Assembly (NCBI RefSeq): GCF_041886205.1
Contig: NZ_CP169029.1
From: Escherichia coli
Lineage (GTDB): Bacteria > Pseudomonadota > Gammaproteobacteria > Enterobacterales > Enterobacteriaceae
DNA: 64,000 nucleotides
Direction: 5' to 3' (one strand)
Positions within the stretch are counted from its first letter, which is position 1. Each line of letters opens with the position of its first letter. A program made the position numbers and the translations under genes. Below are positions 1,367 through 64,000 of this stretch, in pieces. Below the pieces are notes generated by a model, which worked only from the letters and a program-made list of their open reading frames with translations, was not told the DNA's origin and searched no databases.

Positions 1367-2761
1367 TTAATCGTGAGCGCCTATTTCGCGCAGTTTACGA
1401 CCTTTCATCAGATTACGTTCAATATGTTCCAGCGAAACGTGTTTGGTTTCCGGTACCAGCCACAATGTCAGCAGGATAAACAGTACGTTCAGAGCCGCAT
1501 ACACCCAGAAGGTGTTGGCGTTACCCAGCGTGTTGAGCATGGTCAGGAACGTTGCGCCAACGATCATGTTGGCAATCCAGTTGGTGGCAGTGGAGCAGGT
1601 GATGCCAAAATCGCGGCCTTTCAGCGGCTGAATTTCGGAGCACAGTACCCAAATCAGCGGACCGGCACTCATGGCAAAACCGACAATAAACATCAGCAGC
1701 ATGGCGATGGCGAAATACTGCGCCGACGGAGAGTGAATACCGATATGCATCATTGTACCGAGTACGCCCATGCCAGCAGCCATCACCAGGAAGCCCAGCG
1801 TTAGCGTTGGTTTACGTCCCCAGCGGTCAACAAGGCCGATTGCGATAAAGGTGGCAAGTACGTTGGTCAGGCCGACAATCACGGTCCCCCACATTTGCTC
1901 GGTAGTGTTGGTATAACCCGCCAGTTCGAAGATTTTCGGCGCGTAATACATGATGACGTTCATCCCGGTGAATTGCTGCATTACCTGCAACAGTACGCCA
2001 AGGAACACCGCGCGGCGGAAGTTGCTGTTCTCTTTAAACAGCGCCCAGCCACTCTGTTTAACCTGCAAACTTTCACGGATTTCATCCAGTTCGCGTTTCG
2101 CTTCCGCGCTGGTGTCACGCAGGCGTAGCAGCACGCGTTCGGCATCAACAAAACGGCGTTTGGCGGCAAACCAACGTGGGCTGTCTGGCAGGAAGAAGAC
2201 ACCAATCAGCAGCAAAATTGCCGGGATGATAATCACACCCAGCATCCAGCGCCATGCACCGGTGTAGCTGAAGGCTGTATCAGAAAGATAAGCACCGAGG
2301 ATCCCGATAGTGATCATCAACTGATACATCGAGATCATACTGCCACGAATTTTTTCCGGCGCAATTTCAGAGAGGTACAGCGGTGCGGTATAAGAGGCCA
2401 CACCCACCGCCAGCCCCAGTAGAACGCGGGAAAGAATCAGTACTTCAACGTTTGGCGCAGCCGCAGAGAACAGCGAACCGGCAACAAACAAAATTGCGCC
2501 GATCATCAGGCTCTTTTTGCGCCCGAGTTTAAAGGAGAGCCAGCCGCTGCCCACCGCACCGACTGCCGCACCGAACATCATGGAGCTTACGACCCATTCT
2601 TGCGTGTGCGAAGTAATCTGGAATTCATCTGCAATAAACGGCAGTGCGCCAGCAATTACACCGATATCCAGGCCAAAGAGTAATCCCGCCAGAGCGGCAA
2701 GGAAGCAGACGAAAAACGTCATTGCCTTGTTTGACCGCCCCTGTTTTTTAGCGTCAGGCAT
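1367..2761 (-). CDS. galP: Galactose:H+ symporter, MFS sugar porter, 464 aa
   Basis: ORF track 1367..2773 begins at a TTG; true ATG is 4 codons in (rc of 2759-2761) giving [38 protein letters not shown], the GalP N-terminus; 12-TM sugar porter signatures. Confidence 0.95.
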
Positions 2762-2824
2762 GATGCCCTCCAATATGGTTATTTTTTATTGTGAATTAAG
2801 ATAGGTGAGTACGACGTAAAAAGA

Positions 2825-2840
2825 TGTGAAGCAAATCACA
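2825..2840. promoter_or_regulatory. CRP binding site upstream of galP (TGTGA-N6-TCACA)
   Basis: Sequence tgtgaagcaaatcaca is a perfect match to both CRP half-sites, 64-80 bp upstream of the galP ATG. Confidence 0.6.
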
Positions 2841-2843
2841 TCA

Positions 2844-2859
2844 GTGTAATCGCTTACAC
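2844..2859. promoter_or_regulatory. GalR/GalS-type operator upstream of galP
   Basis: gtgtaatcgcttacac is a 16-bp near-palindrome matching the gal operator pattern GTGnAAnCGnTTnCAC, immediately adjacent to the CRP site. Confidence 0.6.
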
Positions 2860-3139
2860 TAACATTTATCTTAGTTATGGTTTAAGTGCATGAAAATAAT
2901 TGAGTTATATCATCATAGATTAAACGCTGTTATCTGCAATTAAGACTTTACTGAAAAGAAATGTAACAACTGTGAAAACTGAATAATAATATGAAAATAT
3001 TACAAATATTTGGCTGGTGTTATTGGTGTAATCGGTTTCAGTAGTGATGATAATTTGCGATAAAACGTGTTGAGGAAGAATGATGTTATTGTGCGGGCAG
3101 CTTTTTGCCGGATGCGGCGTGAATGCCTATCCACCGCGG

Positions 3140-3177
3140 TGAGGTAAAAGAAAAAGGCCAGCGCGAGGCTGGCCTTT
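3140..3177 (-). terminator. Rho-independent terminator downstream of metK
   Basis: On the minus strand: GC stem aggccagc/gctggcct followed by a U-rich tract (ttttcttttacc), directly after the metK stop at 3197. Confidence 0.7.
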
Positions 3178-7122: not shown

Positions 7123-7138
7123 TTAAGATTATTCCGCT

Positions 7139-7180
7139 GGCGGGTCGATTTATTTACGTAAATCGGCCCGCTTTCTTTTT
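7139..7180 (+). terminator. Rho-independent terminator downstream of speA
   Basis: Imperfect hairpin gcgggtcgattta...taaatcggcccgc followed by tttcttttt, 17 bp after the speA stop. Confidence 0.6.
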
Positions 7181-7267
7181 ATATATTCTTAAAAATAATC
7201 TCGCTGCTTTTCTTATTAAATAATCTCCCTACAATCGCTGCATTAATTAAATGCAGAGGGAACGGTT

Positions 7268-7999
7268 ATGAAAAAATGGAAAGTACGTAGCGCGTTGGTG
7301 GCATTAATCGTGCTGCTGGCCGGTTGTTCCAGTAATGCGCAGTATAATAGCAGTGCATCGGGCAATGTCGGCACTGCCTGGGGTGGGGATGTGCACTCAA
7401 CGGTTCAGGGCGTATCTGCTGAGCGAGCCTGGCGCGATCCGGCAGAGATGATCGTTATTAGTTATTCGACTAATGTTCCTTCCGGCTACGACCGCGTTTA
7501 TAGCATTCGTATTAACGAACTGGAATATGCTATTCGCGATGGTAATTTTAATTCTCTACCTATTACGCGGATTTATGATTCATCCAATAATGAACCACGC
7601 TATATTGTCCATGCCAGAGTCGGAATGAATTATCAATTATATGTCCGTAATTACAGTCGTAACACCAACTACGAGATCGTTGCTACGGTTGATGGCATGG
7701 ATGTGCTGAACGGCAAGCAAGGTTCGCTGAATAACAACGGCTATATTGTGAATGCCGGAGATTCGTTAGCGATTAAAGGATTCCGCAAAGATAAACATAC
7801 CGAAGCGGCTTTTCAGTTCGCCAACGTTGCTGATTCCTACGCAGCCAATTCGGCGCAAGGCGATGTGCGTAATACCGGTGTAATCGGCTTTGCCGCCTTT
7901 GAATTACAAGGCCCGGCGCAAAACGCGCTGCCGCCGTGCTCTGGACAAGCCTTTCCGGCAGATAACAATGGCTATGCGCCGCCACCGTGTCGGAAATAG
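7268..7999 (+). CDS. Predicted lipoprotein of unknown function, 243 aa (accessory gene between speA and speB)
   Basis: ATG at 7268 preceded by RBS agaggga; N-terminus MKKWKVRSALVALIVLLAGCSS has a signal peptide with lipobox LAG-C; mature part rich in N/S/Y/G; two Cys near the C-terminus (PPCSGQAFPADNNGYAPPPC). No family recognized by eye. Confidence 0.75.
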   Translation: MKKWKVRSALVALIVLLAGCSSNAQYNSSASGNVGTAWGGDVHSTVQGVSAERAWRDPAEMIVISYSTNVPSGYDRVYSIRINELEYAIRDGNFNSLPITRIYDSSNNEPRYIVHARVGMNYQLYVRNYSRNTNYEIVATVDGMDVLNGKQGSLNNNGYIVNAGDSLAIKGFRKDKHTEAAFQFANVADSYAANSAQGDVRNTGVIGFAAFELQGPAQNALPPCSGQAFPADNNGYAPPPCRK

Positions 8000-8065
8000 C
8001 AACCTCGCTTGATGCCTCGCCCATTTAAGGCGATAATTAGCACAAACTTGTGTTTCGCAAATCCA

Positions 8066-12267: not shown

Positions 12268-12386
12268 TTGCCTTGATATGTCCGTTTGCGGACAGGCAAT
12301 AGGTAAATAGTGATGTGTATCGCAAATATTTATATGAAATAAATATTAACTATGTAATGCGTATCACAATATGCATATTGACATTT

Positions 12387-21765: not shown

Positions 21766-21862
21766 CTGATGCGCTACGCTTATCAGGCCTACACGTATCC
21801 TGCAATATATTGAATTTGCAGGTTTTTGTAGGCCGGATAAGGCGTTCACGCCGCATCCGGCA
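21766..21862. repeat. REP/BIME pair between fbaA and mscS
   Basis: gcctgatgcgctacgcttatcaggcctac and gtaggccggataaggcgttcacgccgcatccggca in inverted orientation. Confidence 0.7.
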
Positions 21863-34864: not shown

Positions 34865-35010
34865 CTGTAACGGTAAAGCCCTCACCGAAGCGAGGGCTTA
34901 AAGGAGAAGGGTTATGATGCGACTTGTCATCATACTGATTGTACTGTTACTGATAAGTTTCGGAGCTTATTAACAGTCAGTCTCAGGGGAGGAGTCATCC
35001 TCCCTTACCC
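34865..35010 (-). ncRNA. sibC: Sib antisense sRNA, copy 1 (approximate ends)
   Basis: Sib antitoxin RNAs are encoded opposite to and fully overlapping ibs; a minus-strand hairpin plus short U-tract (rc of 34877-34898) marks a probable 3' end. Ends are inferred, not mapped. Confidence 0.5.
34914..34973 (+). CDS. ibsC: Ibs-family type I toxin, 19 aa (MMRLVIILIVLLLISFGAY)
   Basis: ATG ATG CGA CTT GTC ATC ATA CTG ATT GTA CTG TTA CTG ATA AGT TTC GGA GCT TAT TAA; RBS aaggagaagggtt upstream; matches the Ibs hydrophobic toxin pattern. Confidence 0.8.
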   Translation: MMRLVIILIVLLLISFGAY

Positions 35011-35255
35011 TTACTCACTAAATTAGGTCAAAGAATCAACGATGTCAATCAGGGCGATGCGGGGTGCATCGCCCTGAACCGATCATTTGATAGACCCTTC
35101 ATCGCCCACGTTTACTGCCGTAATAGATCCTTTTTCCCAAAAATTATCTCTGTTTTGCATGGGGTTTTTCGAGCACGCTCGAAGAAAAGATTTAAAGGTA
35201 GATCAATGCGTTGTGGTTATTTAAAGAGAGCTTACGATAGCTGGGCAGCATGGGG

Positions 35256-35400
35256 CTGTAACGGTAAAGCCCTCACCGAAGCGAGGGCTTGAAGGAGAAG
35301 GGTTATGATGCGACTTGCCATCATACTGATTGTACTGTTACTCATAAGTTTCCCAGCTTATTAACAGTCAGTCACAGGGGAGGAGCAATCCTCCCTTACC
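35256..35400 (-). ncRNA. Sib antisense sRNA, copy 2 (approximate ends)
   Basis: Second repeat unit, same architecture as copy 1 shifted by 391 bp. Confidence 0.5.
35305..35364 (+). CDS. Ibs-family type I toxin, second copy, 19 aa (MMRLAIILIVLLLISFPAY)
   Basis: Same frame and RBS as copy 1; differs at 2 residues (V5A, G17P). Confidence 0.8.
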   Translation: MMRLAIILIVLLLISFPAY

Positions 35401-35464
35401 CTTACTCACTAAATTAGGTTAAAGAATCAACGATGTCAATCAGGGCGATGCAGGTGTGTCGCCC

Positions 35465-36085: not shown

Positions 36086-36271
36086 AGGGAATCTCCGAGA
36101 TGCCGCCGCAGGCTGTAACCCTTGAACCCTTGGTTCAAGGTGAATGTGTCGTCGCAGTTTTAAGGCTTCTCGGACGGACCGAGCATGCTCACCAACCGCG
36201 GAGCGCCACATTCTTGTGGTATGAAATATCGGCTCAGGGGACTGGCCCGCTTGCGAACATCTCAGAGAAAT
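36086..36271 (-). ncRNA. ssrS: 6S RNA (SsrS), RNA polymerase-sigma70 regulatory RNA
   Basis: Reverse complement of 36086-36271 reads AUUUCUCUGAGAUGUUCGCAAGCGGGCCAGUCCCCUGAGCCGAUAUUUCAUACCACAAGAAUGUGGCGCUCCGCGG...GGAGAUUCCCU, which matches the E. coli 6S RNA sequence as recalled. Confidence 0.95.
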
Positions 36272-41139: not shown

Positions 41140-41180
41140 AAATTTCTCTTCTGCTGTTTATTTGATACCCATCACACTTT

Positions 41181-49770: not shown

Positions 49771-49952
49771 GCCTTTGTAGGCCTGATAAGACGCGCCAGC
49801 GTCGCATCAGGCATCGGAGCGCAACCGCCGGATGCGGCGTGAACGCCTTATCCGATCTACGGGCCTCGTCCCTGTTGTGATAAAGGCATCAAATCCCAGA
49901 CATGATAAGACGCGTCAGCGTCGCATCAGGCGATAAATGCCTGATGCGATAC
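49771..49952. repeat. REP/BIME cluster (at least 3 REP units) between convergent yqfA and ygfZ
   Basis: gtaggcctgataagacgcgccagcgtcgcatcaggc, gccggatgcggcgtgaacgccttatccgatctac, and gataagacgcgtcagcgtcgcatcaggc. Confidence 0.7.
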
Positions 49953-61848: not shown

Positions 61849-62827
61849 ACAGGGCTTCGCCATCACGGGTCAGTTCCATCATCTCTTCAGTACAATGCCA
61901 GTCTTTGTGTTGCGCGTTCTGTGCCAGACACTGTTTTTCCAGTGCTTTTAAGCCTTCGTGATCGTTCGCACGCAGCAATTCAGTACGCTCTTCCATCACT
62001 TTGTAAGGTGCCCATGACTTCGGATAAACGATGTCTGCGTCTTTGAAGGCTTCTTCCATGCTGGTGACCTGACGGAAGCTACCACCGGAGGCTTTAGCAT
62101 TGTTTTTCGCCACTTCAACCACATCCGGGATCAGGTCGTAGCCTTCCGGATGGGCCAGGGTGACATCCATACCGAAGCGAGTCATCAGACCGATGATGCC
62201 TTGTGGTACAGAGAGCGGTTTGCCATAGCTTGGAGAGTAGGCCCAGGTCATGGCGATTTTTTTACCTTTCAGGTTTTCCAGTGAACCAAAGTGTTCACGT
62301 AACCACGCGAGGTCAGCCATTGACTGAGTCGGGTGGTCAATATCGCATTGCAGGTTCACTAAAGCCGGACGCTGTGGCAGTACACCCTGCTTGTAACCGT
62401 CATCAAGTGCAGCGCCAACTTCACGCATATAGGCGTTGCCTGCGCCCAGATACATATCGTCGCGAATACCAATAGCGTCGGCGCAGAAGGAGATCATATT
62501 GGCGGTTTCACGCACGGTTTCGCCGTGAGCGATTTGTGATTTGCCTTCGTCGAGATCTTGTTGTGCAAGGCCGAGCAGGTTAAGCGCGGAAGCATAAGAG
62601 AAGCGGGTACGGGTGGAGTTGTCGCGGAATACGGAAATACCTAATCCACTATTAAAGACTTTGGTTGAGATGTTTTCAGCACGCAGTGCTTTTAATGCTG
62701 CGGCAACGTCCAGTACTTGTTTCAGTTCATCTGGCGTCTGTTCCCACGTTAACAAAAAATCTTTCTCGTGAAGGTGAGAGGTCAGCGAATTGATATCCTT
62801 AATCAGCTCATTAACAGTTTTCATCAT
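61838..62827 (-). pseudogene. ygeW: Carbamoyltransferase (YgeW-like) lacking its C-terminal segment
   Basis: ORF track 61838..62827 minus (329 aa); contains the carbamoyl-phosphate-binding STRTR motif but ends ...TRDGEALYAS* with no HxLP-type C-terminal motif. Full-length YgeW is about 396 aa as recalled. Confidence 0.6.
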
Positions 62828-63302
62828 AAAGTCCCGGTAGTGGAATGACAGGCAAAGTGGTTTATTTCACTGTGACTTGCCAAAGTGATTGGTGTTTTCA
62901 CAGCTATACCTGGGACTAACAATAAGTGTGCCAGAATTATCCACGGGGCTGCAAAAGACTAATTTGACGGATAATGTGTGGGGTTGATCACAAATTGATG
63001 CCAGCTTCCGGTTGTTTGTAAAATACGAAAACGTTTGGCTTTTTTTATCGCGTTATTTATTTGCTGCTAAGTATCAGAAATAAGATAAAGGGACAGGCTA
63101 TCCCTCGTCAGTTTGATAAACTCACTGCCGTAATTCTCATATTGATATAGAAATGTGATATCTCTTCCATAATTTCATTAGAAAGTGATAAAAATCTTAT
63201 GTTTTTATCAAAGCCAATTTCGCCTGAGTTAATATCATCATGATCTGTGAACCATCAACGTCTTCAATGATCGACTTTTAAGTAAGTCTGGAAGGTAAAG
63301 CT

Positions 63303-64000
63303 ATGGAGCTTGCTACTACGCAGTCAGTATTGATGCAAATTCAACCGACAATTCAGCGTTTTGCCAGAATGCTTGCCAGCGTTTTGCAGCTTGAGGTTGA
63401 GATCGTTGATGAAAACTTGTGTCGCGTTGCCGGAACGGGCGCGTATGGGAAGTTTCTTGGTCGCCAGTTGAGCGGCAACTCACGCCTGCTCCGCCACGTC
63501 CTGGAAACGAAAACTGAAAAAGTTGTGACACAGTCTCGCTTCGATCCCCTTTGCGAAGGTTGCGATAGTAAAGAAAATTGCCGCGAAAAAGCATTTCTGG
63601 GTACGCCTGTCATTTTACAGGATCGTTGTGTTGGGGTGATAAGTTTGATTGCCGTTACCCACGAGCAACAAGAGCATATCAGTGATAATTTACGCGAATT
63701 TTCTGATTATGTTCGCCATATATCCACCATTTTTGTTTCGAAACTTCTGGAGGATCAGGGGCCAGGAGATAACATCAGTAAAATATTCGCGACCATGATC
63801 GATAATATGGATCAGGGCGTATTAGTTGTTGATGATGAAAGTCGGGTTCAGTTTGTTAATCAGACTGCCTTAAAAACACTTGGTGTTGTACAAAATAATA
63901 TTATTGGGAAACCTATCCGTTTCAGACCATTAACATTTGAGAGTAATTTTACTCATGGACATATGCAGCATATTGTTTCGTGGGACGATAAAAGTGAATT
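63303..64000 (+). CDS. ygeV: Sigma54-dependent transcriptional activator YgeV, N-terminal part (continues beyond window)
   Basis: ATG at 63303 opens a frame with no stop to the window end (MELATTQSVLMQIQPTIQRFARMLASVLQLEVEIVDENLCRVAGTGAYGKFLGRQL...); divergent from ygeW as in K-12. Not in ORF track because it lacks a stop. Confidence 0.85.
   Translation, partial: MELATTQSVLMQIQPTIQRFARMLASVLQLEVEIVDENLCRVAGTGAYGKFLGRQLSGNSRLLRHVLETKTEKVVTQSRFDPLCEGCDSKENCREKAFLGTPVILQDRCVGVISLIAVTHEQQEHISDNLREFSDYVRHISTIFVSKLLEDQGPGDNISKIFATMIDNMDQGVLVVDDESRVQFVNQTALKTLGVVQNNIIGKPIRFRPLTFESNFTHGHMQHIVSWDDKSE

Follow-up and report, generated by a model that had tools for sequence, protein, structure and literature searches.

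The CRP-GalR/GalS composite site at the galP promoter of Escherichia coli and its conservation among enterobacteria

Introduction

At the galE P1 promoter of the galETK operon, CRP binds at -41.5 and the gal operator OE lies at -60.5, with a second operator, OI, at +53.5. GalR at OE contacts the alpha-CTD and blocks open-complex formation beside the CRP bound at -41.5. The lac promoter resembles that of galP in that a sugar-specific repressor of the LacI/GalR family and CRP together give AND-type logic, and in that a distal auxiliary operator allows looping; at lac, CRP occupies a class I position (-61.5) and the main operator lies over the transcription start. Within the gal regulon, mglBAC has, like galP, a transporter promoter that is activated by CRP and repressed by GalR and GalS, while the galS promoter controls the isorepressor itself and is part of a CRP-GalS incoherent feed-forward loop (PMC2516365).

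For galP, published reporter data describe a single, fully CRP-dependent promoter, and its input function has been described as cAMP-dependent (PMC2516365). Its binding by GalR is well documented: galP tops the published table of GalR targets with a ChIP-chip score of 115.4 and an information-theory score of 25.1 bits, and deletion of galR raises the expression of three promoters, that of galP among them (Qian et al., 2016; PMC5110547). The operators of PgalP lie natively at -243.5 and -61.5, and GalR bound the latter (BS2) with a higher affinity than any other site tested (Parisutham et al., 2022; PMC9189660). In the same study, a PgalP reporter appeared to be activated when GalR or GalS was titrated, an outcome not expected of a simple repressor. 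Furthermore, the GalR variant T322R, which forms neither tetramers nor a loop, leaves the AND logic of the galP-derived Gate A as it is in the wild type.

In the following, we describe the galP regulatory region in a stretch of 64,000 nucleotides of E. coli DNA, to which we refer at its full length as the window, and compare it with its orthologs in other enterobacteria and with the promoters introduced above.

Results

Sites in the metK-galP intergenic region

According to the flanking RefSeq annotation, the composite site is located in the metK-galP intergenic region. The features that define this region are the following:

1367-2761, minus strand: galP coding sequence (galactose:H+ symporter), 464 amino acids plus stop, from the translation and the RefSeq annotation
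2825-2840, minus strand: CRP core, TGTGATTTGCTTCACA on the galP sense strand, centre 2832.5, within the full 22-bp site 2822-2843
2844-2859, minus strand: proximal GalR/GalS operator, OI(galP) or BS2, GTGTAAGCGATTACAC in sense orientation, centre 2851.5, promoter position -61.5
3026-3041, minus strand: distal GalR/GalS operator, OE(galP) or BS1, CTGAAACCGATTACAC in sense orientation, centre 3033.5, promoter position -243.5
3153-3177, minus strand: intrinsic terminator of metK, found in a terminator scan, with a 10-bp stem, 6 GC pairs and a T-run

As galP is encoded on the minus strand, the proximal operator lies upstream of the CRP site, and the order in galP sense is GTGTAAGCGATTACAC, TGA, TGTGATTTGCTTCACA, 21 nt, TATCTT, the leader, GGAGGG and ATG. 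Upstream, the galP regulatory region is bounded by the metK terminator. Of 5426 complete E. coli genomes, 5425 contain a 701-bp stretch around the site, together with annotated metK and galP. The window strain is not a K-12 strain; its SNPs relative to MG1655 begin at position 2880 and cluster around the distal operator, and they spare both operators, the CRP site and the core promoter. A REP-like sequence, gccggatgcggcgtgaatgcctatcc, is found at about 3085-3135, in the stretch that separates the distal operator from the metK terminator (3177-3153). The ungapped alignment with MG1655 collapses from about position 3099, which suggests an indel in this element.

In the letters of the window, TGTGAAGCAAATCACA (i.e. 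tgtgaagcaaatcaca) occupies positions 2825-2840 and is followed by tca at 2841-2843 and by gtgtaatcgcttacac at 2844-2859. The CRP consensus extends over 22 bp with A/T flanks, and at galP the operator follows this 22-bp site (2822-2843) with 0 bases between them. The pattern TGTGA-N6-TCACA occurs once in the 64-kb window, at the CRP core, against an expected count of 0.06; 6 of 100 shuffled windows contained one occurrence. The proximal operator shows 0 mismatches to the gal operator consensus GTGTAANCGNTTACAC and fits the 16-bp hyphenated dyad GTGNAANC.GNTTNCAC. Positions 3, 5, 9 and 15 of the gal operator are sensitive to mutation (PMC5110547), and the corresponding consensus bases (G3, A5, G9 and A15) are all intact. 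The runner-up among the operator matches in the window is the distal operator, with 2 mismatches, at a distance of 182 bp.

We further scored the window with position weight matrices built from ChIP-derived sites, 106 for CRP (PMC4287617) and 18 for GalR (PMC5110547), with galP excluded from both sets. The CRP core is the best CRP match in the window, at 16.4 bits, where the ChIP-seq sites have a median of 13.0 bits. For GalR, the galP operators take the first two ranks, with 17.0 bits (proximal) and 16.1 bits (distal). Maxima of random 64-kb sequences reached the galP scores in 15 of 200 cases for CRP and in 26 of 200 for GalR, i.e. in 7-13%. Taken singly, the CRP site or the GalR site is moderately unusual for 64 kb, but not decisive. 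For the composite with its 24 specified bases, by contrast, our arithmetic gives an expected count of about 5e-10 per window.

The sites coincide with published ones. By alignment, 2844-2859 corresponds to MG1655 3088186-3088201 and 3026-3041 to 3088004-3088019, which are the coordinates given for OI(galP), GTGTAATCGCTTACAC, and OE(galP), CTGAAACCGATTACAC, respectively (Qian et al., 2016; PMC5110547). Likewise, TGTGATTTGCTTCACA is the galP CRP site found by ChIP-seq in ETEC H10407 (Haycocks et al., 2015; PMC4287617). A preliminary description of this DNA had proposed perfect CRP half-sites, a gal operator-like dyad 3 bp beyond them, and a regulatory architecture already known for galP. Each of these points holds: the half-sites are exact and unique in the window, the dyad matches the consensus throughout, the gene is galP, and the sites are those mapped previously. 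Both also rank first in the window in the matrix scan that it had suggested as a check, and the mapped operator coordinates, which it had named as a possible source of conflict, are the MG1655 equivalents of 2844-2859.

Core promoter and NagC operator

A literature search for a mapped galP transcription start returned unrelated papers only, and PMC10305011, PMC7907822 and PMC12089948 hold no site-level information. We list the start with a back-calculated position:

2790, minus strand: deduced galP transcription start, equivalent to MG1655 3088255, an A in sense orientation, giving a 29-nt leader
2798-2803, minus strand: candidate -10 hexamer, TATCTT in sense orientation, read from the sequence at a distance of 21 nt beyond the CRP core
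2778-2800, minus strand: NagC operator, CTTAATTCACAATAAAAAATAAC in sense orientation, centred at about +2 and overlapping the transcription start and the end of the -10 hexamer

The start was placed at 2790 because the published operator positions, -61.5 and -243.5 (PMC9189660), in combination with the operator centres at 2851.5 and 3033.5, both lead to this base. Relative to it, the centre of the CRP site at 2832.5 falls at about -42.5, 1 bp off the canonical class II position of -41.5. The galP promoter thus has class II CRP geometry with respect to the deduced start. On the galP strand, the promoter scan detected no sigma-70 consensus promoter, and a -35 consensus is likewise absent.

The string that FITBAR lists as the NagC site of galP (PMC3098098) is identical to this operator, which maps to MG1655 3088245-3088267. 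Repression of galP by NagC has been reported (PMC3098098, PMC5401889), with a single operator at this promoter (PMC5401889). Outside Escherichia, this operator seems less conserved than the CRP and GalR sites: it averages 1.13 bits in an alignment that is less reliable there, with indels downstream of the -10 hexamer, and its cross-genus consensus differs from the box of E. coli. To judge from these sequences, NagC may control galP in some lineages only.

Conservation across enterobacteria

A search for GalP in species-representative genomes yielded 80 loci from about 30 enterobacterial genera, in which GalP is 89-100% identical. Of the 79 loci whose upstream DNA could be used, 74 contain the composite pattern GTGNAANCGNTTNCAC-NNN-TGTGA-N6-TCACA with at most 2 mismatches in its 24 specified bases. 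None of these 74 deviates from the 3-bp gap, and the end of their CRP core is separated from the ATG by 63-69 nt. The mean conservation of the specified columns is 1.86 bits, compared to 0.42 bits in 30 upstream columns, while the bases at the centre of the operator, in the gap and in the CRP spacer are free to change. A gapped alignment of the orthologous galP loci agreed with this and gave the following mean conservation, in bits per column:

Proximal operator: 1.85
CRP half-sites: 1.8
CRP spacer: 0.49
3-bp gap: 0.46
Candidate -10 hexamer: 1.59, as a TAnnnT pattern at a fixed distance
Distal operator: 1.58
Inter-operator DNA: 0.49

Some galP loci are organized differently. Enterobacter sp. 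ENT03 (L053) and Enterobacter sp. kpr-6 (L063) have galP promoters without a CRP site. About 100 nt upstream of galP, they carry a well-kept operator, GTGTAAGCGATTACAT, immediately preceded by a consensus TTGACA, and a further operator follows about 120-130 bp upstream of it; from its sequence, this promoter looks like a rewired variant that is CRP-independent and controlled by GalR. In Silvania confinis (L054), Leclercia sp. (L055) and Silvania hatchlandensis (L064), the sole operator is located at about 130 nt from the ATG. These loci lack the proximal operator as well as the left half of the CRP site, and retain a remnant of the right half, TGACA plus a T-run.

Distal operator, spacing and a conserved island

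The distal operator is present in essentially all loci with the composite site. Its centre lies 181-185 bp from that of the proximal operator in 66 of 70 loci, and 182 bp in the window. The inter-operator DNA thus keeps its length while its sequence changes, suggesting that it is constrained in space, e.g. by looping or phasing. A distance of 182 bp corresponds to 17.3 helical turns at 10.5 bp per turn, or to 17.7 turns at about 10.3 bp per turn, the value derived from the 113-bp, 11-turn gal loop; neither is clearly integral.

Close to the middle of this otherwise variable DNA, we found one further conserved element:

About 2937-2969, minus strand: conserved island, TGTTACAT-N4-TTTCAG-N3-AGTCTGAA, near the inter-operator midpoint at 2942.5, at -147 to -179 relative to the deduced start

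Its columns reach 1.4-1.8 bits, compared to the average of 0.49 in the surrounding inter-operator DNA, and it keeps a distance of 90-93 nt to the proximal and of 75-79 nt to the distal operator. It contains the inverted repeat TTCAG-N6-CTGAA. Inspected by eye, the island does not fit a sigma-70 promoter on either strand, a sigma-E promoter, a second CRP site, an IHF site or a third gal operator, as either key bases are absent or the spacers do not agree. It also does not fit a NagC site by eye, and galP has a single NagC operator (PMC5401889).

The preliminary description of the galP promoter was right in what it covered, but incomplete: it omitted the strand, the second operator at 3026-3041, the NagC operator and the recurrence of the layout at galE P1 and galS.

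Other features of the window

Several further segments of the window differ from MG1655 or match RNA families. About 935 bp between speA and speB (7123-8057) are absent from MG1655 and present in 3558 of 5426 complete E. coli genomes; they contain an open reading frame (7268-7999, plus strand) for a predicted lipoprotein of 243 amino acids with a signal peptide ending in LLAGC, annotated as hypothetical. On the minus strand, 34898-35048 and 35289-35439 encode tandem Sib antitoxin RNAs (Rfam SIB_RNA, 134 and 137 bits). MG1655 has a single sibC/ibsC unit at this place, and by BLAST the K-12 segment is duplicated in the window. The 6S RNA gene (ssrS, 139.8 bits) lies at 36088-36271 on the minus strand, and matches to the REP-derived small RNA families naRNA4 and ES036 of Rfam were found at 49780-49857 and 21785-21827. 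For the right end of the window, 61854-64000, BLAST gave no match to its MG1655 counterpart around ygfT, ygfS and ghxQ; the genes present at this end are strain-specific.

The window also contains other CRP-like sequences. One strong match, TGTGGGGTTGATCACA at 62977-62992, lies inside the strain-specific right end. Another, TTTGATACCCATCACA at 41161-41176, scores 15.75 bits; its position in MG1655, about 3051080-3051095, is within or next to the small yqfI open reading frame between gcvT and ubiI. Two matches 44 bp apart, at 12309-12324 (13.9 bits) and 12353-12368 (14.5 bits), map by colinearity roughly to the tktA-cmtB intergenic region, upstream of cmtB, where the local sequence differs too much from that of K-12 to give a short BLAST match. 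A CRP peak at cmtB is listed by Haycocks et al. (PMC4287617), with a motif string unlike this pair. Exact-string placement of CRP-like matches other than the galP site on MG1655 was unsuccessful because the window strain differs from K-12.

Discussion

Sequence, conservation and published binding and reporter data establish the identity and occupancy of the galP sites, the dependence of the promoter on CRP, its AND logic, and repression in the absence of tetramerization. We are accordingly highly confident in what the CRP, GalR and GalS sites are and in the logic that they implement. The composite itself is real, strongly conserved and already known, and it adds nothing new.

In our reading, cAMP-CRP binds TGTGATTTGCTTCACA at about -42.5, in the position of a class II activator. 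It is needed for transcription at a promoter with a weak -10 hexamer (TATCTT) and no -35 element. The strongest GalR operator of the genome, at -61.5 and also bound by GalS, abuts the upstream edge of the 22-bp CRP site, and when galactose is absent, GalR or GalS at this operator cancels CRP-dependent activation. Expression of galP thus requires both high cAMP and galactose. The operator at -243.5 and the NagC operator over the start site would presumably provide extra repression. As to how the proximal operator acts, GalR at -61.5 may occupy or contact the docking place of the alpha-CTD upstream of class II CRP, so that the open complex is blocked while CRP would stay bound instead of being displaced. 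By analogy with galE P1, where the centre-to-centre geometry of 19 bp is identical, we lean slightly towards this step at galP. The wild-type AND logic of T322R on Gate A means that local action from the proximal operator suffices in that construct.

In physiological terms, the transporter is produced only if galactose is available and glucose is in short supply. This makes galP a textbook-style case of how the cAMP and galactose signals are combined by a repressor placed against a class II activator.

It is possible, though in our view somewhat unlikely, that the main repression instead comes from a DNA loop formed by GalR or GalS between -243.5 and -61.5, from which CRP or RNA polymerase is excluded and for which the abutment is secondary. 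A loop of GalR and HU is established at galETK (PMC5110547), and a model in which a loop prevents CRP binding has been mentioned (PMC2516365). At galP, the spacing of 181-185 bp, kept despite nearly free inter-operator DNA, and the position of the island close to the midpoint speak for such a loop; the spacing suggests that looping matters more than the T322R result implies. However, T322R, which neither tetramerizes nor loops, retains the AND logic on Gate A, which speaks against looping as the main mechanism. In addition, both operators lie upstream, and the galP promoter is thus geometrically outside the loop, unlike the galETK promoters, and the exact 3-bp abutment kept in 74 of 79 loci is not needed by a pure looping model. 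In a variant of the looping model, an architectural protein perhaps binds at the island.

The island could also be a site for a further regulator, or for an architectural protein in a loop that is wholly upstream of the promoter. That the upstream region forms an undescribed conserved higher-order complex, with fixed spacing and the island at the apex of a GalR loop, is a tentative idea suggested by the sequence pattern, and we consider it unlikely; the island may already have been explained by El Qaidi (2009) or Semsey (2007). The fixed inter-operator spacing and the conserved island are the only leads here that seem worth a specialist's time.

Steric competition, in which GalR and CRP do not bind jointly and repression works by exclusion of the activator, is improbable. 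The operator does begin at the first base past the 22-bp CRP site, and exclusive-binding models have been considered for gal promoters (PMC2516365). Yet simultaneous binding has been described for galE P1 at the same 19-bp spacing, and the truly overlapping site is that of mglB, not that of galP (PMC2516365).

Far less probable still is that the palindrome and T-run of the CRP site act on the minus strand as an RNA hairpin or an intrinsic terminator, e.g. as a second safeguard against metK read-through. The terminator scan does flag a 7-bp stem with 3 GC pairs and a T-run, the predicted fold has -9.3 kcal/mol (z = -3.1), and the T-run is fairly well conserved. But only the four inner pairs are invariant in the 74 orthologs, and their sequence is that of the CRP half-site bases. 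The outer three pairs form in 37, 43 and 50 of the 74 loci without compensating changes (C-A in 23), and we rejected the hairpin reading on this covariation logic. Besides, the much stronger metK terminator lies upstream at 3177-3153, and the flanking T-tract belongs to the A/T-flanked 22-bp CRP consensus.

Finally, a chance adjacency of two functionless motifs, which the single-motif matrix scores taken alone would allow, has a negligible probability and is excluded by the co-location of the best CRP and GalR matches of the window 3 bp apart upstream of a galactose transporter gene, by the retention of the composite in 74 of 79 loci, and by published in vivo binding of both proteins (PMC5110547, PMC4287617).

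We therefore return to repression from the proximal operator beside bound CRP as our preferred reading, and compare galP on this basis with the known systems. With galE P1, it shares the complete layout of a 16-bp operator, a 3-bp gap, a 16-bp CRP core, 21 nt and a -10 hexamer: galE P1 reads GTGTAAACGATTCCAC-taa-TTTATTCCATGTCACA, 21 nt, TATGGT, and galP reads GTGTAAGCGATTACAC-tga-TGTGATTTGCTTCACA. The galS promoter has the same operator, 3-bp gap and CRP core, CTGTAACCGTTTCCAT-tgc-TGTGACTCGATTCACG. This 16+3+16 layout, with 19 bp from centre to centre, is thus common to galP, galE P1 and galS, and at galP it has been retained across the Enterobacteriaceae. The galS operator lies natively at -61.5, as does that of galP (PMC9189660), whereas the second galS operator is intragenic (PMC5110547) and that of galP is upstream. 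At mglBAC, a single operator partly overlaps the CRP site and the cAMP response is monotonic (PMC2516365), while the galP operator abuts the CRP site.

galETK and galP are bound by the same proteins and each have a second operator. At galETK, however, OI is located inside galE and a 113-bp loop encloses the promoters, whereas both galP operators lie upstream, 182 bp apart. Measured against the galETK repressosome, galP has two operators that are able to pair, but its promoter is not flanked by them. An HU site at the loop apex and a dependence on supercoiling and on GalR tetramerization also characterize that repressosome; at galP, nothing links the midpoint island to HU, and T322R still represses Gate A. 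galETK moreover has an overlapping, CRP-repressed P2, in contrast to the single, fully CRP-dependent promoter of galP, and its CRP site is weak, where that of galP matches the consensus and is accompanied by an extra NagC operator. Unlike lac, lastly, galP has its CRP in a class II position and its main operator upstream of the activator.
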